From the NCBI GenBank assembly GCA_963844035.1, contig CAWJMT010000030.1, positions 1 through 13,694 on the forward strand: a stretch of 13,694 nucleotides of DNA. Reading direction: 5' to 3'. The notes below the pieces were generated by a model. It saw nothing but the letters and a program-made list of their open reading frames with translations, was not told the DNA's origin and made no database searches. Source of the DNA: an uncultured Gemmatimonadales bacterium. Its GTDB lineage: Bacteria; Gemmatimonadota; Gemmatimonadetes; Gemmatimonadales; GWC2-71-9. Of the stretch, positions 1 through 13,296 are shown in pieces; the first letter of the stretch is position 1; the number at the start of each line of letters is the position of its first letter. The position numbers and the translations under genes were made by a program.

Positions 1-482
1 ATAGAGAATCCACATGAAGGAAACGGTGCCATGTGGATAATCCCCGGTGGGGCTCCGGTCGCGTGCCAGTACGATCCGGCCGGGGTGGCGGCGGCCGGCG
101 TGGCGGCCTGCGGGGCAGCGGCCTCTTCGCCCATGCGCACGACCCCGTTGATCTCTCCTCCTTCATGGACCAGCAAGCGTCGGCTGGTGATGTCGCCGTG
201 CACGACGCTCGTGGCCTGGATCTCCACGCGCTCCTCGGCAACCACGGTGCCGCGCACCTCGCCGCCGATAATCGCTTCGCGAGTGACGACGTCACCCTCG
301 ACCTCGCCCCCCTTGGCAACCAGCACTTGCCGGCCGGCGCGCACGGTACCGACGACGGTGCCTTCAATCTTCACCACGCCGTCTGCCGTGATGTCGCCCA
401 CCACCCGCATGCCGGGGCCGATGATTGACAGCGCGCCCTGCGATTCCGGCGCGCCGTGTCCCTTCTCGGTGAAGATGGCCAT
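1..482 (-). CDS. Bactofilin (polymer-forming cytoskeletal protein, CcmA family); 3' end runs off the window
   Basis: Not in the ORF track because it has no stop in the window. Read by hand from ATG at 482: MAIFTEKGHGAPESQGALSIIGPGMRVVGDITADGVVKIEGTVVGTVRAGRQVLVAKGGEVEGDVVTREAIIGGEVRGTVVAEERVEIQATSVVHGDITSRRLLVHEGGEINGVVRM. This is the typical beta-helix G-x-V/I repeat pattern. It starts 1 nt after the M23 stop (TGA-C-ATG). Confidence 0.92.
   Translation of the reverse strand, partial: MAIFTEKGHGAPESQGALSIIGPGMRVVGDITADGVVKIEGTVVGTVRAGRQVLVAKGGEVEGDVVTREAIIGGEVRGTVVAEERVEIQATSVVHGDITSRRLLVHEGGEINGVVRMGEEAAAPQAATPAAATPAGSYWHATGAPPGIIHMAPFPSCGFS
32..40 (-). promoter_or_regulatory. DnaA box (TTATCCACA, perfect)
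   Basis: TGTGGATAA at 32-40 on the + strand is the exact reverse complement of the consensus. A second degenerate box, GAATCCACA (7/9), lies at 6-14 in the opposite orientation. The setting is locally AT-richer and close to gidA/parAB/parS. Confidence 0.6.
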
Positions 483-483
483 G

Positions 484-1480
484 TCAATTCTCCCGTTTCA
501 CCATCGTGAGCGGATCGAGCGATTTCCCGTCGAGACGAATTTCGAAATGCAGGTGCGGCGCGGTCGAGTGCCCCGAGCTCCCGGACAGCGCGATCACCTG
601 CCCCGCCTGCACCGAATCGCCCTCTCGCACCAGCAGCCGCGACGCGTGGCCATACATGCGTCTCATAGTGCCCGGGATGTAGCAAGAGCACAAACAGCCC
701 AAACGCGGAATCGGTCCCCGCCTTCTCCACCACGGCGCCTCCCGCCGCGCGCACCGGTGTGCCCAGGGGCACTGCAATATCGATCCCGGAGTGCGATTCC
801 GCTGGGTCGCCGGGCTTCACTTCGCCGCGGGTCACGAACCCCGCCGCGTCCAGCGGCCAGCGCAGTGATGCTGACGACTCCGGCGCCTTCCGTGCCGATG
901 ACGACGTCCCAGTCCCTGCCGGTACAGGCGCCGGTGCCGGTGCCGGTGCCGCTGCCGCCGGTGCCGCCGCTGCTGCCGCAGTCGGTGCCGGCCTCGATGC
1001 CGGGCTGGCGTCGGTGCCGGCGGCGGCGGAGTCGGTGTCGTGGCCGGTGCCGGTGCCGCGCCACTGCCGGGGTCGAAGAGGAGTCGAAGGCGGAACGGGA
1101 GCCGCGGTGGGAATGCTCGCCCGCAGCGCCACGGCACGCATCATGTCCTCCTCGGGCATCGGCGCAGGCGCCGCGCCCGCGCGGCCACCGAGCAGCTGCC
1201 GCAACTCCTGATAGTTCGCCTCCGCCCGGCTCAGCGCCTGGGCGAGCGCTTGGACGCGACCATTCTCCTTGCTCAGACGCGCGACTTCGCGTTCCAGTCC
1301 CGGCACCCGTGCGGCCGCGTAGGTCAGCGGCTCCGCGAACGCGAAGAACAACACTACCAGCAGAGCGACCGTGACGGCGCTCCACTTCCCTGCCTCGAAC
1401 GCCCAGAGCGGGACGTGATACTTCTTGGTGCTGGGATCGCCGTCGATGTGGACGACGATCGTGACGCCGCGCGGCTTCAT
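484..1480 (-). pseudogene. Membrane-anchored M23 metallo-endopeptidase (LmdC/Csd1-like layout), split by a +1 frameshift at ~658; possibly an intact gene with a sequence error
   Basis: ORF 371..1480 gives an N-terminal peptide, a TM helix (WSAVTVALLVVLFFAFA), a coiled coil, a Pro/Ala linker and the first half of M23 (WPL...HSGIDIA, HxxxD). ORF 484..777 gives the second half (YGHAS...GQVIALSGSSGHSTAPHLHFEIR, HxH). Removing base 658 joins them as ...HYET-MYGH..., about 331 aa. Confidence 0.88.
930..1060. repeat. Degenerate GCCGGT/GCCGCT short tandem repeats encoding the Pro/Ala-rich linker of the M23 protein
   Basis: (GCCGGT)x3 at 930-947 followed by degenerate units; (GCCGGT)x2 at 1043-1054. 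Confidence 0.7.
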
Positions 1481-2361
1481 CCGTCGAACGGCGCGCCCAG
1501 TACGAGCTCGAGCAGGCGAGCCAGATCGTCGTTGGAGTAGAACGCGACATGGATCTGCCCCTTCCCTTTCGCTCGCAGCGTGACGCGCACGTCGGTCCCG
1601 AGACGGCGGCGCAGTGCGTCTTCGACGCGGCGCACCTCGGGCGCCTGACCGACGCCGCGTTTGAGACGCGGGCGACGGACGGGTGCGCGCCCGCCCCGCA
1701 CGCGATCTTCGATCTCGCGCACCGAAAAACCCTGCGCGACCGCTTCCCGCGCAAGCTGCGCGGCAGCGCGCGGGTCCTCGACCGCGAGCAACGCGCGGGC
1801 GTGCCCCACCGACAGGTGCCCTTCGTGCAGCATCGTGAGCACGGCGGCGGGCAGCTTGAGGAGTCGGAGCGCGTTCGCCACCGTGGAGCGGTCGCGCCCG
1901 ACGGCGTCCGCAACGTCCTGTTGCGCCAAACTGAATTCCGCGAGCAGGCGCTCATAGCCGCGCGCTTCGTCAACGGGCGACAAGTCGTCCCGCTGCAAGT
2001 TTTCGATGAGGGCGAGGGTCAGGGCGGTGCGATCGTCGACTTCCCGCTTGACGGCGGGGATGCGCTCCCAGCCGAGCGCCTGGCACGCGCGCAGCCTCCG
2101 CTCCCCGGCGATCAGCTCGTATCCGGCGCCGCTCGGTCGGACGACGATCGGCTGCAGCAGACCCGCCTGACGGATGGACGCCTTGAGCTCCTCGAGTGCA
2201 GCGGGGTCGACGTCTTGACGGGGTTGGAAGGGATTCGGGCGGATATCGACGACTGCCAACTCGACCAGACTGCCGTCGCGCTCGGCGTCCTCGCGGGTGG
2301 GGCCGAGTAGGGCTTCGAGCCCTCGGCCGAGCCGGCGGCGTCCAACGGTGACTTCGGTCAT
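1477..2361 (-). CDS. parB: Chromosome partitioning protein ParB/Spo0J
   Basis: 294 aa. N-terminal LGRGLEALL ParA-activating peptide, PNPFQPR, GLLQPIVVR, ELIAGERRLRA CTP-binding motif, ENLQRDDL, HTH region (GRDRSTVANALRLL). ATGA overlap with the parA stop. Confidence 0.98.
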   Translation of the reverse strand: MTEVTVGRRRLGRGLEALLGPTREDAERDGSLVELAVVDIRPNPFQPRQDVDPAALEELKASIRQAGLLQPIVVRPSGAGYELIAGERRLRACQALGWERIPAVKREVDDRTALTLALIENLQRDDLSPVDEARGYERLLAEFSLAQQDVADAVGRDRSTVANALRLLKLPAAVLTMLHEGHLSVGHARALLAVEDPRAAAQLAREAVAQGFSVREIEDRVRGGRAPVRRPRLKRGVGQAPEVRRVEDALRRRLGTDVRVTLRAKGKGQIHVAFYSNDDLARLLELVLGAPFDG

Positions 2362-3179
2362 GCGGGCACCTCGGGCAGCGGTTCAACCGCGGGGGGGGCA
2401 GGGGACTCCGCCCGTTCGACGCGAGCGATCAACTCCTGCGCCACGGCGAGATAGCTCCGGGCGCCGACCGACTGGACGTCGTACAGGAGGATCGGCTTAC
2501 CGAAGCTCGGCGCTTCGGCCAACCGCACGTTGCGGGGAATCGTGATGCCGAACATGCGCGGCCCGAAATACTCCTTCGCCTCCTCCGCCACCTGCTTGCA
2601 GAGGTTGAGCCGCGCGTCGTACATGGTGAGCAGGACGCCATCGATCGCCAGCGTCGGATTGAAGTTTCGTTGGACGAGCTTGATCGTGTTGAGGAGCTGC
2701 GAGAGTCCTTCAAGCGCGTAGTACTCGCACTGAATCGGAATCACGACGCTGTCGGCGGCGGTCAGCATGTTCAGGGTGATGAGACCGAGCGACGGCGGAC
2801 AGTCGATGATCACGTATTGGTACTGCTCGCGGATATCGCGCAGCGCGCGCTTCATGGCCATCTCGCGCCCTTTGCGATTCACCAGCTCGAGCTCGGCACC
2901 TACCAGATCCTGGTTGGAGGGAATGAGATCGAGGAAAGGGAAGTGGACGTGCGCGAAGCGCGCGTCCTCGAGCGGCCGGTTCTCCATGAGCACGTCGTAC
3001 AGCGAGTAACGAATGCGATCGCGCTCGATGCCGACACCGCTCGTCGAGTTCCCTTGAGGATCGCCATCGATGAGCAGCGTCTTCCGCTCCGCGGTCGCGA
3101 GCGAGGCGGCGAGATTCACGGCGGTGGTCGTCTTGCCGACACCGCCCTTCTGATTCGCGATCGCGATTACGCGCGACAT
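2358..3179 (-). CDS. parA: Chromosome partitioning ATPase ParA/Soj
   Basis: 273 aa. Deviant Walker A NQKGGVGKTT, DGDPQGN, IIDCPPSLG, PIQCEYYALEG, IPRNVRLAEAPSFG. Confidence 0.98.
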   Translation of the reverse strand: MSRVIAIANQKGGVGKTTTAVNLAASLATAERKTLLIDGDPQGNSTSGVGIERDRIRYSLYDVLMENRPLEDARFAHVHFPFLDLIPSNQDLVGAELELVNRKGREMAMKRALRDIREQYQYVIIDCPPSLGLITLNMLTAADSVVIPIQCEYYALEGLSQLLNTIKLVQRNFNPTLAIDGVLLTMYDARLNLCKQVAEEAKEYFGPRMFGITIPRNVRLAEAPSFGKPILLYDVQSVGARSYLAVAQELIARVERAESPAPPAVEPLPEVPA

Positions 3180-3322: not shown

Positions 3323-5188
3323 TTACGCAACGGAACGACGGCGACGAAACGCCTCGACCACCAAGTTGTGAAGGTCGCTCGGGGAAACGCCAGGCACCCG
3401 GGCCGCTTGCGCCAGCGTCGCGGGACGAACGCTGTTGAGCTTTTGTCGCGCCTCGGTCGCGAGACTCTTCAGCTCGAGGTAGGGCAGGTCGGCGGGCAAC
3501 TCGAACGACGCCATCTCGGCCAAGCGGCTGGCGGCCTCGCGCTCGCGCGCGAGGTAGCCCGCGTACTTGATCTCGATCTCCACGGCGGCGAGCGCGTCGT
3601 CGCCTGCCACCGAGATCCCCGCGGCCTCGAGCAGCGCACGCAGTGAAACTCCCGGACGCCGCGCGACCGCGGCTACGCGATCGGCTTCGGCAAGGCTGGT
3701 TCCCGACGCCGCCAGCACCGGCGCCGCTTGCGCGGGTGTGATCGTCGTTGCCTGCGCCGTCTCGAGCAGCCGTTCTTCAGCGCGCAGCTGCTGCTCCGCC
3801 ACTCGCAGCTCTGCGGGGGTGAGCAACCCCAGGCGCTCTGCCAGGGGCACCAGCCGCCGCAGCGCGTTGTCCTGGCGGAGCAACAAGCGAAACTCGGAGC
3901 GCGACGTGAACAGGCGATACGGCTCGTCGACACCGCGCGTGACCAGGTCGTCCACCAGTACACCGATGTATGCGTCGTCCCGTCCCAGGATCACGGGCTC
4001 CTCACCGCGCAACCGTCGGACCACGTTGACCCCGGCCACTGCTCCCTGACCCGCGGCCTCTTCATACCCTGTCGTGCCGTTGATCTGACCAGCGAAAAAC
4101 AAATGCTCCACCGCCTTGGTCTCGAGCCACGGCGTGAGCTGGGTGGGAGGATAGTAGTCGTACTCGATCGCGTAGCCCGGGCGCGTCATCGCGGCCCGCT
4201 CGAGACCGGGCACAGCGTGCAGCAGCTCGAGCTGCACGGGGACGGGCAGCGAGGTGGAGAGCCCGTTCACGTACAACTCATGCGTGTCGAGCCCCTCCGG
4301 CTCGAGGAATATCTGATGGCGCTCCGCGGCGGGGAACTTGACGATCTTGTCTTCAATGGATGGGCAATACCGCGGGCCTCGGGCGCTGATCGCTCCGCCG
4401 TACAAGGCCGACTCGTGGATGTGCTCCTGAATGATCTGCTTGGCGCGGGGTCCGGCCCACGTGATCCAGCAGGGGACCTGGCGCGGCAGGACATCGCGTT
4501 CGAAGTATGAGAAGCGATACTCGACACCGTCGCCGTCCTGACGCTCTACCTTCGACCAGTCGACGGTTCGTCCATCGATCCGCGGCGGCGTCCCGGTCTT
4601 GAAGCGCGATGAGATAAGTCCAATATCTTCAATATGTTGCGCGATCGCGACCGCCGGTTGATCGCCCGCGCGCCCGGCGGGAATCGCCGTGTCAGTGCCC
4701 AGGTGAATGCGGCCGCGCAAGAACGTACCGGCCGTGATCACCACGGCGCGCGATGTGAGTCGCCGCCCGTCGGCCAGCTCGACCCCGTGCAGCGCGGCTC
4801 CCTCGACGATCAGGCGCGTGACCATGCCCTGCGCCAGCTCGATTCCCTCGACGCGTTCGAGCAGCGTGCGAACCGCGCGGCGGTACAGTGTGCGGTCGCA
4901 TTGCGCGCGGGGCGCCCACACCGCCGGGCCCTTGGAGCGGTTGAGCATACGAAAATGGATCGTGGCCCGGTCAGCGGCCCGCCCCATCACGCCGCCGAGC
5001 GCATCGACCTCGCGCACCACGGTCCCCTTGGCAATTCCGCCGATCGCGGGATTGCAACTCATTTGGCCGATGGTATCGAGGTTCGACGTCAGGAGCAGGA
5101 CGCGGGCACCCAATCGCGCGGCCATGACGGCGGCCTCGGAGCCGGCGTGGCCGGCACCGACAACAATCACGTCATAGTCAACAGGCAT
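3323..5188 (-). CDS. mnmG: tRNA uridine-5-carboxymethylaminomethyl(34) synthesis enzyme MnmG (GidA)
   Basis: 621 aa. VVGAGHAGSEAA FAD-binding motif, MSCNPAIGGIAKG, RFKTGTPPR, GPRYCPSIEDK, AGQINGTTGYEEAAGQG, EPYRLFTSRSEFRL. Confidence 0.99.
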   Translation of the reverse strand: MPVDYDVIVVGAGHAGSEAAVMAARLGARVLLLTSNLDTIGQMSCNPAIGGIAKGTVVREVDALGGVMGRAADRATIHFRMLNRSKGPAVWAPRAQCDRTLYRRAVRTLLERVEGIELAQGMVTRLIVEGAALHGVELADGRRLTSRAVVITAGTFLRGRIHLGTDTAIPAGRAGDQPAVAIAQHIEDIGLISSRFKTGTPPRIDGRTVDWSKVERQDGDGVEYRFSYFERDVLPRQVPCWITWAGPRAKQIIQEHIHESALYGGAISARGPRYCPSIEDKIVKFPAAERHQIFLEPEGLDTHELYVNGLSTSLPVPVQLELLHAVPGLERAAMTRPGYAIEYDYYPPTQLTPWLETKAVEHLFFAGQINGTTGYEEAAGQGAVAGVNVVRRLRGEEPVILGRDDAYIGVLVDDLVTRGVDEPYRLFTSRSEFRLLLRQDNALRRLVPLAERLGLLTPAELRVAEQQLRAEERLLETAQATTITPAQAAPVLAASGTSLAEADRVAAVARRPGVSLRALLEAAGISVAGDDALAAVEIEIKYAGYLAREREAASRLAEMASFELPADLPYLELKSLATEARQKLNSVRPATLAQAARVPGVSPSDLHNLVVEAFRRRRSVA

Positions 5189-5200
5189 GGCAGGAAACTA

Positions 5201-5635
5201 CTAGGGAGCAGGAACGGCATAGGCGCACAGACGGGCAGCGGGAAACAGGCGGGAGTCAACGGGATTAGGAGATTTCTCGGCGGACTGGCCGATCTTCCTC
5301 ATCAACCCGAATAAGGTCTTGCTCGTCTCCGTGGCGAGTGCCTCCAGGCGACCGAACTCAGCGGGCCGCAGGTAGCCGACCTCGTGCGCGATCCCCAGGG
5401 CCGTTTCCACTTCCGCCAAGGACCCCCACGCGATGTCGAGGTAGCGTCGGTACTCTCTCGACCCCTTCCGGGCGGTTCCTTCCGCGATGTTCAGGGGAAC
5501 GCTGTAGCAGGCGCGCCGGAGTTGGTCGGCAAGAACGGTCTGTTCGCATTCCGGAAACGCCTGGGCCGCCTTGACGCACTCGACCGCGAGTCGCTGCGCG
5601 TGCTGCCATGCCTTGAGCGTCTGATGGTTGGGCAT
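5201..5635 (-). CDS. Four-helix-bundle protein (23S rRNA intervening-sequence protein family, TIGR02436/PF05635-like; structurally related to DGR Avd)
   Basis: From ATG 5635: MPNHQTLKAWQHA...FPECEQTVLADQLRRACYSVPLNIAEG...EYRRYLDIAWGSLAEVETAL...GYL. This matches the family pattern L-x-x-WQ...QxRRA-x-S-x-x-x-NIAEG...I-A-x-GS-x-x-E. 144 aa; the 26-aa extension to 5713 in the ORF track looks non-coding. Confidence 0.92.
   Translation of the reverse strand: MPNHQTLKAWQHAQRLAVECVKAAQAFPECEQTVLADQLRRACYSVPLNIAEGTARKGSREYRRYLDIAWGSLAEVETALGIAHEVGYLRPAEFGRLEALATETSKTLFGLMRKIGQSAEKSPNPVDSRLFPAARLCAYAVPAP
5227..5251. repeat. Left arm of a degenerate inverted repeat flanking the four-helix-bundle gene
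   Basis: ACAGACGGGCAGCGGGAAACAGGCG is 18/25 identical to the reverse complement of 5711-5735. It sits in a purine-rich array of ~8-11 nt units (CGGGA recurs at 5239, 5250 and 5260). Confidence 0.65.
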
Positions 5636-5710
5636 GGTACCGGACGATAGGATCAAGAGGAGCAGATGGGGAATCATTCGCTTGCAGTCCGTACCCGACC
5701 TACGCACTAA

Positions 5711-5735
5711 CACCTGTCCGCCGCTTGCCGTCTAT
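5711..5735. repeat. Right arm of a degenerate inverted repeat flanking the four-helix-bundle gene
   Basis: CACCTGTCCGCCGCTTGCCGTCTAT; its reverse complement ATAGACGGCAAGCGGCGGACAGGTG aligns to 5227-5251. The CGTCTA unit repeats at 10-nt spacing. Confidence 0.65.
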
Positions 5736-5760
5736 CGTCGTCTAGCTCTTTGCATTTCCT

Positions 5761-7020
5761 CTACGCTGCCTTTACCCACCTTACTAGTTCCCTCAGGCTG
5801 GGCCGCTTTCCCGTCATCAGAATCCCCACGCGGTAGATCCGCGCCGCCACCCACGTGGCGCCGACGATCCCCACCGCGAGCAAAACGAGTGAAGCCGCGA
5901 GCTCCAGCGCGGGCAGGTCGCCCGCCGCCCAGCGCACCGGCATTGCGATCGGGGAGGTGAAGGGAATGAGTGACAATGTCACGGCGAGGGCAGACTCGGG
6001 ATTGTTGAGGAGCGCGAACATGGAGAGGAACGCGACCACCAGGAGGTACACAATCGGCTGTTGTGCCTGCTGGGCCTCCTGCTCGTTCGAAGACATTGCG
6101 CCTACAGCGGCGAACATCGCGGCGTACAGGAAAAACCCGCCGATGAAGTAGGCGAGAAAGATGAAGACCGTTGCGCCCGACACCTGCGGGATCCGAAACA
6201 GGGGCTCCGGCGTGTCGAGACCGCCCCAATGCCCCCCGAGCGCCGACCCCACGCCGAGCAGGGCCTTCGCGGCAATCCCCCAGAGCAGGAATTGAAACAG
6301 CGACACCGCTCCGACACCGAGGACCTTACCAAGCAGCAGCGGAAACGGCCGGATCGACGACACCAGCACCTCGACGATCCGCGTCGTTTTCTCTTCGAGC
6401 ACCGCGCTCTTCACGTTCACGCCGTACATCACGATCGCCATGTACAGGATGACCGCCATGAAGTACGCCAGCGAGAACGATTGCGCCGCGCTTTCTCCCG
6501 TCGCATGCGACCCGGAGACTTTGGTCGTGATGAGGGTGATCCCTTGCCGTGCCCGCGTCAGGACGTCCGGATCGACACCCGCACGCTCGAGCCGGGCCGC
6601 CGTGACCACGCTCGACAGTATGGTCTCGAGCTCCTTGATATCGCGCAGCGCCGACACGTTCGATGCCCGGTACTCCGCCACCCCGGTCGCCACCACATCC
6701 TCCGAGAGAATCAGCACACCGTCGAGGCGCTTGGCACCGACCTCTCCCATGAGCGAATCGAGCACGCTGGTGCCTGCGCTTACGAGGACACCGCGGAGCG
6801 TGGTGCCGGCGTTCAGAGCGGCGATGACCCGCGCGCCGAAGTCCGCGTTCGTGCCGTCCACGACGGCGATTCGCTTGGTTCCGCCGGCGGACGCGAACAC
6901 GACCGGCAGCAGAAACACCGCGGCAAAGAAAATCGGACCGAGCAGGGCCGAGACCCAGAACCACTTGCGGCGCACCCGCTCGAGAAACTCGCGCCGGATC
7001 ACCGCCCAGACCTTACGCAC
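5761..7020 (-). CDS. ABC-2 type exporter permease (NatB/YhaP-like)
   Basis: 419 aa with a GTG start and GGGAG RBS. N-terminal REFLERVR plus a TM helix, a large extracellular loop, EEKTTRIVEVLVSS, GKVLG, 5 further TM helices, IPFTSPIAMPVR and RIYRVGILMTGK. Confidence 0.93.
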   Translation of the reverse strand: MRKVWAVIRREFLERVRRKWFWVSALLGPIFFAAVFLLPVVFASAGGTKRIAVVDGTNADFGARVIAALNAGTTLRGVLVSAGTSVLDSLMGEVGAKRLDGVLILSEDVVATGVAEYRASNVSALRDIKELETILSSVVTAARLERAGVDPDVLTRARQGITLITTKVSGSHATGESAAQSFSLAYFMAVILYMAIVMYGVNVKSAVLEEKTTRIVEVLVSSIRPFPLLLGKVLGVGAVSLFQFLLWGIAAKALLGVGSALGGHWGGLDTPEPLFRIPQVSGATVFIFLAYFIGGFFLYAAMFAAVGAMSSNEQEAQQAQQPIVYLLVVAFLSMFALLNNPESALAVTLSLIPFTSPIAMPVRWAAGDLPALELAASLVLLAVGIVGATWVAARIYRVGILMTGKRPSLRELVRWVKAA

Positions 7021-7996
7021 GCGGCGTCTCCCCGCGTTCGGCGCCCACCAAGTCTATGAAAACTTTGTGCAGCGACGGCTCCACCAGCTCGAAGCGCGCG
7101 AGCCGCACGCCCGATTGCACCAGCTCTCGCAGCAGCTCCTGTGGATCGGTGCCGGATGGGAGCTCGACTTCAGCGTATTGCCCGTAGTCGTCGACTTTGG
7201 ACACGAGCCGCCGGTCGGCGAAGATCCGCAGGGCGGCCGTATCCGTGCGCCCGTCGAAGCCGATGGTCAGATGCTGGCCACCATGCATGCGCTTGATCTC
7301 CGCCAGGGGACCGTCCACGAGCTTGCGGCCGTGCGCGACGATGCACAGCTGGTCGCACAATTTCTCGGCCTGCTCCATGACGTGCGTGGACAGCAACACC
7401 GTGACCCCACCGTTGCGGAGGTCCAGGACCACATCCTTGAGAACCTGGGCGTTCACGGGATCGAGGCCGGCGAACGGCTCGTCCAGAATCACCAGCGCGG
7501 GGTCGTGGAGCAGGGTCGAGATGAACTGGACCTTCTGCTGCATCCCTTTGGAGAGGTCGTCGACGCGACGGGCGTGCCACCCGCCCAGTCCCAGGCGTTC
7601 GAGCCAGGCAAGCGCGCGGGCGCGTGCAGCCCGGCGATCGACCCCCTTCATCTCGCCGAGGAACACCAGGACATCGAGCACCCGCATCCGGCGGTACAAC
7701 CCCCGCTCCTCGGGGAGGTACCCGATCCGTGCCGAGTGATCCCGCGCCGTGCCGGATCCCCCGAACAGCCGCACGCGACCAGCGTCCGGGAGGAGGATGT
7801 CCAGCATCATCCGGATGGTGCTGGTTTTCCCCGCTCCGTTGGGACCCAGCAATCCGTAGATGACGCCCGTCGGGACTGTGAGCGACAGGTCGTCCACCAC
7901 CGTGTGACCCGCGAACCGTTTGGTGATATGGTCCAACACAAGGGCAGGCGGGAGAGGCGCGGGGCGGGGCAGGCCGGCCGCGGAGGCGTCCGTCAG
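7013..7996 (-). CDS. ABC exporter ATP-binding subunit (NatA/YhaQ-like); start uncertain (CTG 7996, GTG 7939 or TTG 7936)
   Basis: Walker A GPNGAGKTS, GYLPEERGLY, signature LSKGMQQK, Walker B ILDEPFAGLDP, STH switch, C-terminal PSLHKVFI. Confidence 0.92.
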   Translation of the reverse strand: MTDASAAGLPRPAPLPPALVLDHITKRFAGHTVVDDLSLTVPTGVIYGLLGPNGAGKTSTIRMMLDILLPDAGRVRLFGGSGTARDHSARIGYLPEERGLYRRMRVLDVLVFLGEMKGVDRRAARARALAWLERLGLGGWHARRVDDLSKGMQQKVQFISTLLHDPALVILDEPFAGLDPVNAQVLKDVVLDLRNGGVTVLLSTHVMEQAEKLCDQLCIVAHGRKLVDGPLAEIKRMHGGQHLTIGFDGRTDTAALRIFADRRLVSKVDDYGQYAEVELPSGTDPQELLRELVQSGVRLARFELVEPSLHKVFIDLVGAERGETPRA

Positions 7997-8436
7997 GACT
8001 TCACGGCGTCCTTGAGCGCGTTCCAGGGAAGTAACGCACACTTGATCCGGACCGGGAATTTCGCGACCCCGGCGAGTGCCCGGAGATCACCCAGCCCCTT
8101 GTCGGCGGCGGCGGACTCATCGCCGTGCATCATGGCGCTCATCCGGTCCGCCAACGCGAGCGCGTCGGCCAGCCGCTTGTCCTTCACGATCTGCGTCATC
8201 ATCGAAGCGGCAGCCTGGCTGATCGAGCAGCCGCGACCGATGAATCGCACCTCTTTGATCACATCCCCGTCCATGCGCAGCTGCAACTCGATCTCGTCGC
8301 CACACAGGGGGTTGTTCAAGACGATCGCGTGGGTCGGCTGCTCGAGCACCCCTTTGTTGCGGGGCCGCCGGTAGTGATCGAGGATCAACTCCTGGTAGAG
8401 CGCGCTGAGCCTCGGCTCAGGCCGGGACGTATCCAA
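7993..8436 (-). CDS. sufU: SUF system Fe-S assembly / sulfur-transfer protein SufU
   Basis: LYQELILDHY, NPLCGDEI, GCSISQAAAS and GVAKFPVRIKCA give three Cys plus Asp. It lacks the IscU LPPVK motif. TTG start with a GGAG RBS. Confidence 0.95.
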   Translation of the reverse strand: MDTSRPEPRLSALYQELILDHYRRPRNKGVLEQPTHAIVLNNPLCGDEIELQLRMDGDVIKEVRFIGRGCSISQAAASMMTQIVKDKRLADALALADRMSAMMHGDESAAADKGLGDLRALAGVAKFPVRIKCALLPWNALKDAVKS

Positions 8437-9646
8437 ACAGCGCTCCAGCTTTGACCAGCGAGCCCACCAGGGCGTCGATGTCGTCGTGGTCGTTGTAGAG
8501 GTAGAAGGACGCCCGCGCCGTCGCCGCGATGTTGAGGCGTCGCATCAAGGGCTGGGTGCAGTGATGACCGGCCCGGATGCACACGCCGTCCTGATCGACG
8601 ATCGTCGCCAGGTCGTGGGGATGAATGTCCCCGTAGGTGAACGAGACCACCCCGGCGCGATGCTCGCGGGGCCCATACAAGGTGATGCCCTCCACCTGGC
8701 TCAGCCGCTCCATGGCGGCGCGCGCCAACGCAACCTCGTGCTCGGCGATCCGCTCCATGCCGACGGCCTCGAGGTACGCGATGCCCGCCGCGAGCCCGAC
8801 CGCGCCTTCCACGTTGGGCGTCCCCGCCTCGAACTTGTGTGGGATCGCGTTGTAGGTCGAATGATCGTCCCACACGCGCGAAATCATTTCGCCGCCGCCC
8901 TGATACGGCGGCATGGCCTCGAGCAGCGCGGGCTTGGCGATGAGCGCGCCCGACCCCATCGGCCCGAGCATCTTGTGGCCGGACAGCGCATAGAAATCGC
9001 AATCGAGCGCTTGAACGTCCACCCGCAGGTGCGGCGTGGACTGCGCACCGTCGACCACCGCGACCGCACCGGCGGCGTGCGCCAGCCGGACGAGCTGGGC
9101 AACCGGGTTCACAGTTCCCAACGCATTGGAGACGTACGGGAACGCGACGATCTTCGGCCGGCGCTCGAGCGCCCGTCCGAAATCGGACAAGTCGAGGCGG
9201 CCATCCTCCGTGATCTCCACCATCGAGATGGTGGCGCCTTTTTCTTCGCAGAGAATCTGCCAGGGTACCAGGTTCGAATGGTGATCCATGGCGGTCACCA
9301 CGACCGTGTCACCGGCGCGCACGTTGGCCCGGCCGTACGCGTGGGCCACCAGGTTGATCGCTTCGGTCGTGCCGCGCGTGAACACCACGCCTTCCGGCGC
9401 CCAGGCGTTCACGAACCGTGCGACGCTTGCCCGTGCGGCCTCATACGCTTCCGTCGCCCGTACGGCGAGGTCGTAGGCGCCGCGGTGGACGTTGGCGTTG
9501 GTGGTGCGATAGTACTCGGCGATCGCCCGCAGCACCGACTCGGGCTTCTGCGTGGTCGCCGCGTTGTCGAGATAGACGAGCCGGTGTCCGTTTTCCAGCT
9601 CGCGCAGCAGGGGGAAGTCGGCCCGGATCCGGGCGGTGTCGAGCAC
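8417..9646 (-). CDS. sufS: Cysteine desulfurase SufS (class II)
   Basis: YLDNAATTQKP, NVHRG, SGHKMLGP (PLP Lys), KFEAGTP, RAGHHCTQPL (catalytic Cys), RASFYLYN. Confidence 0.98.
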   Translation of the reverse strand: MLDTARIRADFPLLRELENGHRLVYLDNAATTQKPESVLRAIAEYYRTTNANVHRGAYDLAVRATEAYEAARASVARFVNAWAPEGVVFTRGTTEAINLVAHAYGRANVRAGDTVVVTAMDHHSNLVPWQILCEEKGATISMVEITEDGRLDLSDFGRALERRPKIVAFPYVSNALGTVNPVAQLVRLAHAAGAVAVVDGAQSTPHLRVDVQALDCDFYALSGHKMLGPMGSGALIAKPALLEAMPPYQGGGEMISRVWDDHSTYNAIPHKFEAGTPNVEGAVGLAAGIAYLEAVGMERIAEHEVALARAAMERLSQVEGITLYGPREHRAGVVSFTYGDIHPHDLATIVDQDGVCIRAGHHCTQPLMRRLNIAATARASFYLYNDHDDIDALVGSLVKAGALFGYVPA

Positions 9647-10986
9647 TAGACCCGCCGCCCGCCCGAGGAGCGGTCCGCCAGGCGCGCGCGGATCACGAGA
9701 TCGAGCTCGTTGCGCAGCTCCGGATGCTCCATGCGCCCGAGGATCTCGGCGGCAAAGCCGTAGGTCAACAGACCAGCCGCCATGTCGGGCGACAGGCCGC
9801 GGCTCCGCAGGTAGTAGAGCGCGGTCTCATCGAGCGGACCCATGGTCGAGCCGTGCGTGCACTTTACATCGTCCGCATAGATCTCGAGCTGTGGCTGGCT
9901 GTCGGCCCGGGCTTCGCCCGAGAGCAGCAGGTTGTTGTTGGTCTGCTTCGAATCGGTGCGCTGCGCGCCGGGACGCACGATGATGCGTCCGGTGAAGACG
10001 CCATGCGCCTGTTCGCCCAGGATGCCGTTGAAGAACTCATGGCTCGTGCAATGCGGCTGCGCGTGCTCGATCACGGTGTGATGATCGGCGTGCTGCTTGC
10101 CTCGCAGCAGGTAGAACCCGTTCAGCACCAGCTGGGCGCCGCTCCCGGCGAGTGTTGTGGCAATGTCGTGCCGCGACAACCCGGCGCCGAGCGTGATCGG
10201 GTGCAAGGCCAGCGTACTGTCCCGACCCTGCGTCGTGTGCGTGGTCGCGATGTGGTACGCCACGCGGCTGTCGCTCTGGATACGGTAATAGTCGACTCGT
10301 GCCCCCTCACCCACCGCGACTTCGGTGACGGCATTCGTCCAATAGACGCCGTCCGTGAGCGCGACGTGACGTTCGACCACCGTCACCCGGGCGCCGCGCT
10401 CCACGACCACGAGGCTGCGCGGATGCGACACCGTCGGGTCGCCGCTGCCCGACGTGGCGAAGACGAGCTCGATCGGCCGGTCGACGGTCACGCCCGCGGG
10501 CACGTGAATCACCGCTCCATCGGCGAGAAACGCAGTATTGAGCGCGGCGAATGCGTTCGTCTCGTAAGGGGCGTAGTGCGCCAGGTGGGCACGCGTCAGG
10601 TCGGGAGCCGCTGTGAGCGCCGCAGCGAGACTCCCCGCGCGAACCCCGGGAGGCAGACCGGTCAGGCTCGAGAGGTCGGGCGCGAAGCGGCCGTCCACGA
10701 ACACAGCGCGGGCCGCGCGCGGGCCGGCAAGAAAGAGCACCTGGAGCTTTCCCGAGGGCGCGCCGCCTGCCCGTCCAGCGAGCGCGAACGGCGTCTCCGC
10801 GATCGGCGCGGTGCTCGTGAATCGCCACGCTTCCTGTTTCATGGTGGGGAATCCGAGCGCCGCGAACCGGGCGATCGCCGCCTCGCGAATCTCCCTCAGC
10901 CACCCGGGAGCGCCGGCGGCGCCGTTGCCCGCGAATTTCCTGAAGTCCGCGACGTAGCGGCCGGTGACGTCCACCGGTTGCGTCAT
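9646..10986 (-). CDS. sufD: Fe-S cluster assembly protein SufD
   Basis: FPTMKQEAWRFT, FAALNTAF, QTNNNLLLS, PQLEIYADDVKCTHGST, YLRSRGL. The start is placed at the ATGA overlap with the sufC stop (MTQPVDV). Confidence 0.97.
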   Translation of the reverse strand: MTQPVDVTGRYVADFRKFAGNGAAGAPGWLREIREAAIARFAALGFPTMKQEAWRFTSTAPIAETPFALAGRAGGAPSGKLQVLFLAGPRAARAVFVDGRFAPDLSSLTGLPPGVRAGSLAAALTAAPDLTRAHLAHYAPYETNAFAALNTAFLADGAVIHVPAGVTVDRPIELVFATSGSGDPTVSHPRSLVVVERGARVTVVERHVALTDGVYWTNAVTEVAVGEGARVDYYRIQSDSRVAYHIATTHTTQGRDSTLALHPITLGAGLSRHDIATTLAGSGAQLVLNGFYLLRGKQHADHHTVIEHAQPHCTSHEFFNGILGEQAHGVFTGRIIVRPGAQRTDSKQTNNNLLLSGEARADSQPQLEIYADDVKCTHGSTMGPLDETALYYLRSRGLSPDMAAGLLTYGFAAEILGRMEHPELRNELDLVIRARLADRSSGGRRV

Positions 10987-11741
10987 GCCACGGGTGCCTC
11001 GTCCCGCGCCCACTCGTTGTAGCCCTTCGCTTCGAGCTCGAGCGCAAGATCCTTCCCACCGGATTTGACGATCCGCCCACCCGACAGCACGTGCACGAAG
11101 TCCGGCGCGATGTGCGTCAGAATCCGGTTGTAGTGGGTGACGAGCACGACGGCGTTGTCGGGGCGCCGCAACAGCGTCACCGCGTGAGCCACCGTCTTGA
11201 GCGCGTCGATATCGAGCCCGGAGTCCGTCTCGTCCAGAATGGCGAACTTGGGCTCGAGCACGGCCAGCTGGAGAATTTCGTTGCGCTTTTTCTCACCCCC
11301 CGACAGGCCTTCGTTCACCGGCCGGTCCAGGAAGCTGTCGTCCCAGCCGATGACCTTGAGCTTGGCCTCGAGCAGGTCCATGAACTCGACCGGTCCGAGC
11401 TCCTCGTCACCCCGCTGCTTGCGGATCGCGTTGAGCGCCGCGCGCAGGAAGTAGGCGTTGGTGATGCCCCGGATCGACACCGGATACTGGAACGCGAGGA
11501 ACACGCCTTCGCGGGCCCGCTCTTCGGGCTTGAGGGCGAGCAGGTCGGCGCCGCGGTAGCGGACGCTTCCCTCGGTGACGGTGAACGCCGGATGGCCGGC
11601 AAGCACCTGGGCGAGCGTGCTCTTGCCCGAGCCATTCGGCCCCATGATCGCGTGCACTTCGCCCGCTTCGACCGTCAGGTCGATGCCGCGCAGGATCTCT
11701 TTGCTCTCCACCGCGACGTGGAGGTTCTCAATCTGGAGCAA
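10983..11741 (-). CDS. sufC: Fe-S cluster assembly ATPase SufC
   Basis: GEVHAIMGPNGSGKST, FLAFQYPV, VNEGLSGGEKKRNEILQ, ILDETDSGLDIDAL, THY. TTG start as the sequence stands (see the indel finding). Confidence 0.98.
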   Translation of the reverse strand: MLQIENLHVAVESKEILRGIDLTVEAGEVHAIMGPNGSGKSTLAQVLAGHPAFTVTEGSVRYRGADLLALKPEERAREGVFLAFQYPVSIRGITNAYFLRAALNAIRKQRGDEELGPVEFMDLLEAKLKVIGWDDSFLDRPVNEGLSGGEKKRNEILQLAVLEPKFAILDETDSGLDIDALKTVAHAVTLLRRPDNAVVLVTHYNRILTHIAPDFVHVLSGGRIVKSGGKDLALELEAKGYNEWARDEAPVA

Positions 11742-11756
11742 GGGCTGTGCGTGGGC

Positions 11757-13193
<1,437 letters not shown>

Positions 13194-13296
13194 GACGACT
13201 CCCGATGAGACGATGCAGGTACTACTTCGAGCCATGTACCAGCCCGAAGTCATTTACAGGACTGCAGTTGCATGGTTTGGGCAGGTACCTGGTCGA

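Follow-up and report, generated by a model that had tools for sequence, protein, structure and literature searches.

The window analysed here, a stretch of 13,694 nucleotides from the assembly of an uncultured Gemmatimonadales bacterium, carries a small gene for a predicted four-helix-bundle protein that is enclosed by inverted repeats and fills the gap between an ABC-2 permease gene and mnmG. A preliminary description, made from the letters alone, had proposed that this unit is a small, possibly mobile or RNA-excisable module, or else an RNA switch controlling mnmG. The question raised by the locus is whether such a unit works as RNA or moves as DNA and, if the latter, by which route.

A four-helix-bundle gene between inverted arms

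Gene calls and start positions were obtained with a purpose-written script. As had been described, the open reading frame at 5635-5201 (minus strand) occupies the permease-mnmG gap, so that the cassette lies between these two genes and not inside an rRNA gene (Table 1). The rest of the window, 1-3179 and 7013-13253, holds ordinary neighbours: parA, parB, an M23 peptidase, bactofilin-like genes, an ABC ATPase and the suf operon (parA and the ABC ATPase were named by Pfam, the rest by eye). The earlier statement that no transposase or reverse transcriptase (RT) is present was borne out, as none was found by eye among the open reading frames of the window and no RT was found in the source assembly (G000).

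Table 1. Features of the permease-mnmG junction in the window.
Feature	Position	Strand	Remarks
ABC-2 permease gene	5761..7020	-	Host gene, upstream; Pfam PF12698; last ~36 nt travel with the cassette; differences from contig C9 start at 5796
5' arm	5707..5760	-	Purine-rich, degenerate ~8-nt units, from the permease stop onward; core 5735-5711
Distal promoter-motif copy	5691..5706	-	About -70 from the ATG
Proximal promoter-motif copy, GC-N8-G(G/A)T	5671..5686	-	About -50 from the ATG; common to yraN, comM and the dprA-run promoter
TAnnnT -10-like box of the cassette gene	5644..5649	-	8 nt 5' of the ATG; predicted leaderless promoter (PMC3160421, in excerpt)
Four-helix-bundle gene	5201..5635	-	144 aa in the window copy; conserved domain 5620-5309
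Usual stop codon position	5256..5258	-	Out of frame in the window copy, which has lost one base a little upstream (a natural change or an error of assembly)
3' arm	5201..5255	-	Pyrimidine-rich; core 5251-5227
mnmG -10-like box, TAGTTT	5195..5200	-	6 nt 5' of the ATG; position kept in inverted and empty alleles
mnmG	3323..5188	-	Host gene, downstream; Pfam PF01134; first ~20-70 nt vary among swapped alleles

The assignment of the gene to the PF05635 family was confirmed, its product scoring well above the curated cut-offs of both PF05635 (106.9 versus 33.8 bits) and TIGR02436 (99.6 versus 24 bits), with PF05635 as the only Pfam match. The predicted structure (pLDDT 93.8) is a four-helix fold, and a fold search with it returned XCC0516 (2GSC, TM 0.95), a known pentamer, and Avd (4DWL, TM 0.74), a likeness that also appears in a match to PHROG 3206 (E of 1e-4). 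Neither Pfam nor the fold search revealed a nuclease, recombinase or RT domain. A role in antiphage defence was considered and rejected, since none of 11 proteins matched a PADLOC defence model. The median dN/dS was 0.09 over 703 pairs of orthologous cassette genes (saturated pairs skipped), and internal stops were absent from 38 cassette genes, although these copies were collected by protein similarity, a search that decayed copies would escape. As judged from these comparisons, the protein is under strong purifying selection.

The C-terminal tail had been described as reading through the 3' arm. This is true of the window copy but peculiar to it, as 41 of 53 orthologues stop at 125-126 aa, and comparison with them places the usual stop (5258-5256) one base out of frame in the window. 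This junction is present three times in the source assembly, in sequence that comes from different strains or species: the window, C9:145112-145492 and C1:103251-103598. Contig C1 is full of frameshifts, which makes indel errors likely in this assembly.

The core of the arms pairs as first reported (18/25, or 22/25 with G-U pairs): on the minus strand, 5735-5711 and 5251-5227 form 18 Watson-Crick and 4 G-U pairs with 3 mismatches. Dinucleotide shuffling of both flanks reached 18/25 in 7 of 1,000 trials and 22/25 including G-U in none of 1,000, while the 19/25 pairs of the plus strand were reached in 240 of 1,000. The transcribed strand of the window copy has four G-U and no A-C pairs, and its core helix is predicted to form with pair probabilities of ~0.9 within an 820-nt context. 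As an arm-only duplex, the sense strand gave a z score of -3.1 (0/300 shuffles) and the antisense strand one of -1.9 (10/300). Folding the whole 581-nt region was no better than shuffles on either strand (z of 0.36 and 0.28), and the outer pairings GAGC/GCTC and AGGAAA/TTTCCT, said to extend the stem to both host genes, are there as letters but have pair probabilities of 0.01 to 0.03; the TTTCCT element overlaps the mnmG -10-like box. Of the preliminary observation, then, the gene and the core arms stood, and the whole-region fold, the outer pairings and the generality of the read-through tail did not.

Terminal complementary arms making a long stem are present, if weak, in the window copy, whose stem is among the weakest of its family (alignment score of 30, reached in 41/200 shuffles; DNA duplex z of -1.6). 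Stems were significant in 34 of 39 orthologous copies at the mnmG slot, with the two strands equally good (19 versus 20). The check for similar flanks at paralogous loci, proposed beforehand, was positive: 59 of the relatives' 95 loci exceeded the 99th percentile of non-cognate flank pairing, compared to 1 of 95 in a direct-repeat control. The arm units vary between copies, and the arm type tracks the cassette-gene tree (by eye). Divergent genes flank only 2 of 78 paralogous loci, and the 5' arm is purine-rich in 70; in 57 of the 78, with both neighbours resolved, the downstream neighbour is head-on.

Exchange, inversion and loss at the mnmG slot

The window and its sister contig C9 differ by ~1.7% outside the cassette and by ~25% inside it; per 250 nt, this amounts to 0 to 12 differences over ~8 kb outside and 56 to 73 inside. 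The tract of divergence extends between 5796 and 5168-5120, from 36 nt into the permease gene to 20 to 70 nt into mnmG. The C9 cassette is 91 to 96% identical to that of C1, the host genes of which are only ~85% identical. The same pattern was found between two genera (L154 and L160), with cassettes 86 to 90% alike and permease genes ~70%, and the reverse between host sisters such as L140 and L160, with outer flanks 96 to 98% and cassettes 55 to 68% alike. In these comparisons, the divergence of the flanks fades with distance from the cassette. Approximately unbiased (AU) tests on the cassette gene rejected 8 of 9 host groups, which were chosen after both trees had been inspected; the pair of window and C9 was not rejected (p of 0.49). 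At the level of these gene sequences, the cassette-gene tree is in conflict with the host tree.

We examined 53 loci from 51 genomes, all of them adjoining the permease gene or mnmG. The cassette was complete and forward in 39 and inverted in 8, and the tree forces at least three changes of orientation (with one short locus and C1 left out). A further inverted allele, ~79% identical to that of the window, belongs to a close relative found in runs X2 and X3, one contig each from a single study. The check for empty junctions in relatives, which had been suggested beforehand, gave 18 unfilled and 6 filled out of 24 in a first sample, some of the former with arm remnants, and the filled ones all fell in one clade of 15 rows. 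A further 20 junctions comprised 11 empty ones, 6 with the gene (one inverted), 1 gapped and 2 with other DNA. Close homologues were present in 55 of 301 genomes of the family, and the source assembly has seven PF05635 loci, three of them the copies of the permease-mnmG junction, which come from one mixed assembly. All these counts are over related genomes and are not independent samples.

Plain vertical inheritance with losses, our first reading, was overturned by denser sampling, which brought out the swaps, the inversions and the tree conflict. The data show that cassettes are exchanged horizontally at a single allelic site, with short flanks co-converted, and they fit equally a swap of filled alleles and a loss followed by regain. 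They do not show insertion without exchange of flanks, as for an insertion sequence (IS) or MITE, since the flanks covary with the cassette. Comparison among relatives shows that the PF05635 unit behaves as a DNA cassette at a fixed slot, where it is exchanged, inverted and lost. The idea of a small, possibly mobile module is in this way upheld by empty junctions, swaps and inversions; the RNA excision, the selection on RNA structure and the mnmG switch that accompanied it are not (see below).

Other DNA was also seen in or near the slot. In G072 (L213:584-1456), an integron integrase gene directly follows the permease gene in the place of the cassette, with a similar leader motif by eye. In G098 (L216:966-2015), a DDE transposase gene stands between the 3' arm and mnmG, and in G133 (L207), what appears by eye to be a Tad-type pilus locus lies between the permease gene and the cassette. 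Cassettes in both orientations occur at two other sites as well (G000:C12:79466 with L109, L113, L117 and L098, and L050 with L100), one of which holds an unrelated four-helix-bundle gene in another family.

Predicted leaderless starts and the upstream motif

A scan of 5150-5800 for sigma-70 promoters and terminators gave no sites. However, the TAnnnT pattern that marks leaderless genes (PMC3160421, in excerpt) was found 4 to 10 nt before the mnmG start in 38 of 39 filled junctions, with no Shine-Dalgarno-like match, and by eye in empty junctions too. Across the source assembly, TAnnnT peaks 5 to 10 nt before the ATG, where 127 of the 773 genes that have a gap upstream carry it, which suggests that leaderless mRNAs may be numerous. 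For the cassette gene, the box reads TAnnnT in 17 and CAnnnT in 20 of 39 copies. Given the leaderless position of this box, a transcript started from it would not include the 5' arm.

When the leaders were searched de novo, ~50 of 82 diverse loci proved to have GC-N8-G(G/A)T between -48 and -52, counted from the start, and another copy lay at about -70. These two positions are reminiscent of activator sites lying at about -42 and -62 relative to a leaderless start. With a matrix built from 60 of 83 leaders and a threshold of >5 bits, the motif was present before 49 of 53 cassette genes at the mnmG slot, 22 of 30 yraN genes, 9 of 28 comM genes (19 below the threshold; 2 edge loci dropped) and none of 43 mnmG genes, against a background of 18 in 2,465 called genes and 11 in 1,268 genes with an upstream gap. 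The conserved CMD-obgE-dprA run, too, was headed by the motif in 19 of 29 genomes (one edge locus dropped) versus 11 of 419 controls, where the link to dprA, which is visible in 23 of 30 loci of this run, depends on co-transcription across CMD and obgE. The relationship holds in the opposite direction: a matrix from the 30 yraN leaders alone hit 53 of 90 cassette leaders at -49, compared to 0 to 3 of 90 at seven other offsets and 36 of 1,268 in the background.

YraN, ComM and DprA act in transformation (PMC13663708; 10.1101/2024.10.21.619469; both in excerpt), and the source assembly encodes ComEC, DprA, a ComEA-type protein, RecA and ComM. A promoter motif at a set position is thus common to the cassette gene, yraN, comM and the dprA run, and we infer that it is a candidate competence-regulon motif. 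In this assembly, however, it was not found directly before comEC, comEA, radC, dprA, lexA or recA. A LexA box was rejected as its identity, the lexA and recA upstream regions being devoid of it, and a link to pilins was set aside as weak (3 of 29 pilV-like clusters). A different repeat was seen by eye before both lexA and recA and was not recovered by a pattern search.

Other genes of the source assembly that follow the motif are DUF559 genes, a gene for a Y1 transposase and one for an integron integrase; in excerpts of PMC4790341, the integron integrase is described as induced during transformation. Its double form was seen at C37:36042, C35:168477, C5:200739, C10:45653, C27:108043, C27:110282 and C27:106278, which comprise DUF559 genes, the Y1 transposase, the integron integrase, two unannotated loci and a tRNA gene. 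The DUF559 genes and the Y1 transposase under the double motif each have REP-like flanking repeats of their own (by eye). A gene-less hairpin of 7-nt repeats directly precedes the yraN promoter (C2:40700-40780). The CMD-obgE gap is ~400 nt longer in six genomes (L325, L326, L328, L333, L334 and L336), and five of these gaps match divergent PF05635 hits, so that the dprA run appears to hold a cassette slot itself. The motif scan also brought up AT-rich stretches unlike the rest of the genome (C4:417000-451000, C20 and C22), possibly foreign or misbinned.

Routes of spread and known systems

According to the RNA reading, the arms would loop the gene out of a permease-mnmG transcript for cleavage or would control mnmG. 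The window copy does favour it to some extent, with the transcribed strand pairing better than the other (22 versus 19 of 25) and a core helix probability of ~0.9; the arms usually start within ~15 nt of a host stop codon, and the Coxiella intervening sequence (IVS) is built alike and is cleaved by RNase III (PMC4990558, in excerpt). Against it, RNase III was found in none of 151 family genomes. Searches with PF00636 and PF14622 gave 0 of 187 relatives in families f1 to f8, in contrast to 12 of 13 in f9 to f12, and in the source assembly the enzyme was found neither by tblastn nor after fabF, which is followed there by another gene. A literature search on RNase III loss returned nothing relevant among the matches listed. 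The G-U asymmetry, offered as a sign of selection on RNA structure, is real in the window copy but disappears over many copies: G-U pairs numbered 68 versus 85 on the two strands over 34 orthologous stems (the significant ones of 39 at the mnmG slot) and 122 versus 132 over 78 loci (17 weak ones left out). As for a switch, a -10-like box belonging to mnmG itself is there whether or not the cassette is, the cassette moreover occurs in either orientation, and a leaderless cassette transcript would be without the 5' arm. An Rfam search of 5000-6000 gave no match. None of the contigs in RNA runs X18-X20 or in DNA run X1 spanned the cassette. We therefore consider this reading very improbable, although the arms may have a role as RNA through an enzyme other than RNase III.

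The failure to find RNase III in the lineage and the motif common to yraN, comM and the dprA run make it likely that the unit spreads as DNA in transformation rather than being cut from RNA. The mechanism that we favour, tentatively and with slightly less than even confidence, is a self-contained cassette of arms, predicted promoter and four-helix-bundle gene that is exchanged, inverted or lost at a fixed slot and probably spreads via natural transformation of its hosts. If the motif marks a competence regulon, the cassette gene would be expressed when single-stranded DNA enters the cell. The arms could fold on either strand of the incoming DNA and loop out ~450 nt of non-matching sequence, which would bring the permease end and the mnmG start together for recombination by RecA, DprA, ComM and YraN, so that host recombination might install the cassette using short flanks. 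The Avd-like protein, probably a pentamer, would bind or protect the folded structure and favour its own cassette, and recombination or slippage between arms could give rise to inversions, losses and the matching of arms within copies. The swaps that include short flanks, the inversions, the losses that leave arm remnants, the conservation of the protein, the failure to find RNase III and the common motif, as shown by comparison, agree with this scheme. On the other hand, the motif was not found directly before comEC, comEA, radC, dprA, lexA or recA in the source assembly and is sparse at pilV-like clusters and comM. In addition, measured transformation events are kilobases long (median of 5 to 6 kb with 6.4-kb donors; PMC13663708, in excerpt), and swaps of ~650 nt would need later trimming or a special route. 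A bolder version, on balance doubtful, is that PF05635 cassettes are undescribed enzyme-free homing elements that parasitise transformation, with a borrowed competence promoter that would set expression to the moment of DNA uptake, arms presenting the host flanks alone to RecA and an Avd-like ring driving integration of its own cassette; rRNA IVSs and scattered heptamer hairpins would then be side-products.

The protein might instead be a host accessory of the yraN/comM/dprA regulon that helps, limits or filters the recombination of incoming DNA, its alleles being exchanged by ordinary transformation and kept by balancing selection and the arms being by-products matched by conversion. We hold this proposal to be rather unlikely. 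The low dN/dS without pseudogenes among 38 copies, the close homologues in 55 of 301 genomes, the presence of 53 of 53 examined loci at the mnmG slot and the common motif all fit it, and the fading of flank divergence with distance is also what a balanced polymorphism would give. Repeated clean loss (18/24 and 11/20 junctions) is harder to reconcile with such a function, as are the 0 to 13 paralogues per genome at many sites, 59 of 95 with arms of their own, and the lack of PADLOC matches (0/11); the presence of the motif before genes for a Y1 transposase, an integron integrase and DUF559 proteins suggests that mobile genes have borrowed it. The motif could also mark a LexA-independent DNA-damage or stress regulon, and the cassette could be moved in trans by an enzyme acting on folded single strands, be it a Y1 transposase, an integron integrase or an RT. 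Here yraN lies directly upstream of recA, ssb (named by eye) carries the motif, the Y1 transposase and the integron integrase share it and the latter sits in the cassette slot of G072; Avd, in turn, works with an RT (PMC10053308, in excerpt). Yet an RT was present in only 22 of 101 family genomes and not in the source assembly, and we rejected it as the mover; nor was a WYL activator found in that assembly. The swaps carry 20 to 90 nt of host flank, and site-specific enzymes are not known to carry flanking host sequence along. With arm units that vary from copy to copy, unlike fixed enzyme sites, we judge movement in trans under a stress regulon improbable.

The PF05635 family is very common, with no known function, and the means by which its intervening sequences are spread has been an open question for decades (PMC4990558, in excerpt). 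We found no description of a PF05635 cassette outside rRNA among the matches listed in a search limited to literature outside subscription journals. The mnmG-slot locus gives a direct handle on the family and adds to it the lineage-wide lack of RNase III and the motif common to transformation genes. With the RNase III route closed, exchange taking place at the level of DNA and a motif that connects the unit to yraN, comM and the dprA run, specific tests become possible on competence induction, the arms, the protein and comEC. If spread by transformation holds true, the cassette would be a selfish element profiting from transformation, which is mostly regarded as a means of clearing such elements. 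Apart from this, a candidate competence-regulon motif and an RNase III-less state are now described for a large uncultured lineage.

Among known systems, the cassette is closest in build to the ORF-bearing 23S rRNA IVSs, as in the Coxiella burnetii S23p (PMC4990558) and the CPR rRNA inserts (10.1101/2024.02.27.582315; both in excerpt), where a PF05635 gene is likewise enclosed by a stem of terminal inverted repeats; in Coxiella, too, short tandem repeats are found in the arm (PMC4990558, in excerpt). It differs in lying outside rRNA, in a lineage where RNase III was not found, in either orientation and with a predicted promoter of its own. Moreover, the Coxiella ORF was reported as decaying and probably not expressed (PMC4990558, in excerpt), as opposed to a cassette protein under strong purifying selection. 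The cassette is hence a PF05635 member built like an ORF-bearing rRNA IVS that falls outside that class by its location and by RNase III. Intergenic heptamer repeats (TAACTGA, Beggiatoaceae; PMC4679880, in excerpt) resemble the arms in their short tandem units and fixed polarity at gene ends, although here the repeats are the paired arms of a gene cassette; PMC4679880 contains no mention of "four helix," "four-helix" or "intervening sequence."

The Avd protein of diversity-generating retroelements (DGRs), which binds nucleic acid, has the same fold as the cassette protein. The two are 15 to 16% identical, though, and neither an RT in the source assembly nor a template or variable repeat in the window was seen. 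The IS200/IS605 elements, REP-associated transposases and integron cassettes depend on single-stranded DNA that is folded (reviewed in PMC4790341, in excerpt), and members of these groups share the motif of the cassette in the source assembly. Unlike them, the cassette encodes no transposase or integrase, has its gene inside the stem and not beside a short hairpin, does not conserve its arm sequence and has co-converted flanks. Instead of a transposase with conserved terminal repeats, as in an IS or MITE, we found a single PF05635 gene and arms that differ between copies. Homing endonuclease genes and introns occupy a fixed allelic site, are exchanged between species with short co-converted flanks, are lost and are kept under purifying selection, all of which the cassette has in common with them; it differs in having no nuclease or RT domain, in being intergenic and unspliced, in inverting and in its repeat arms. 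By its enzyme content, the cassette is not an IS, a DGR or a homing endonuclease gene; its behaviour at a single allelic site is that of a homing element.
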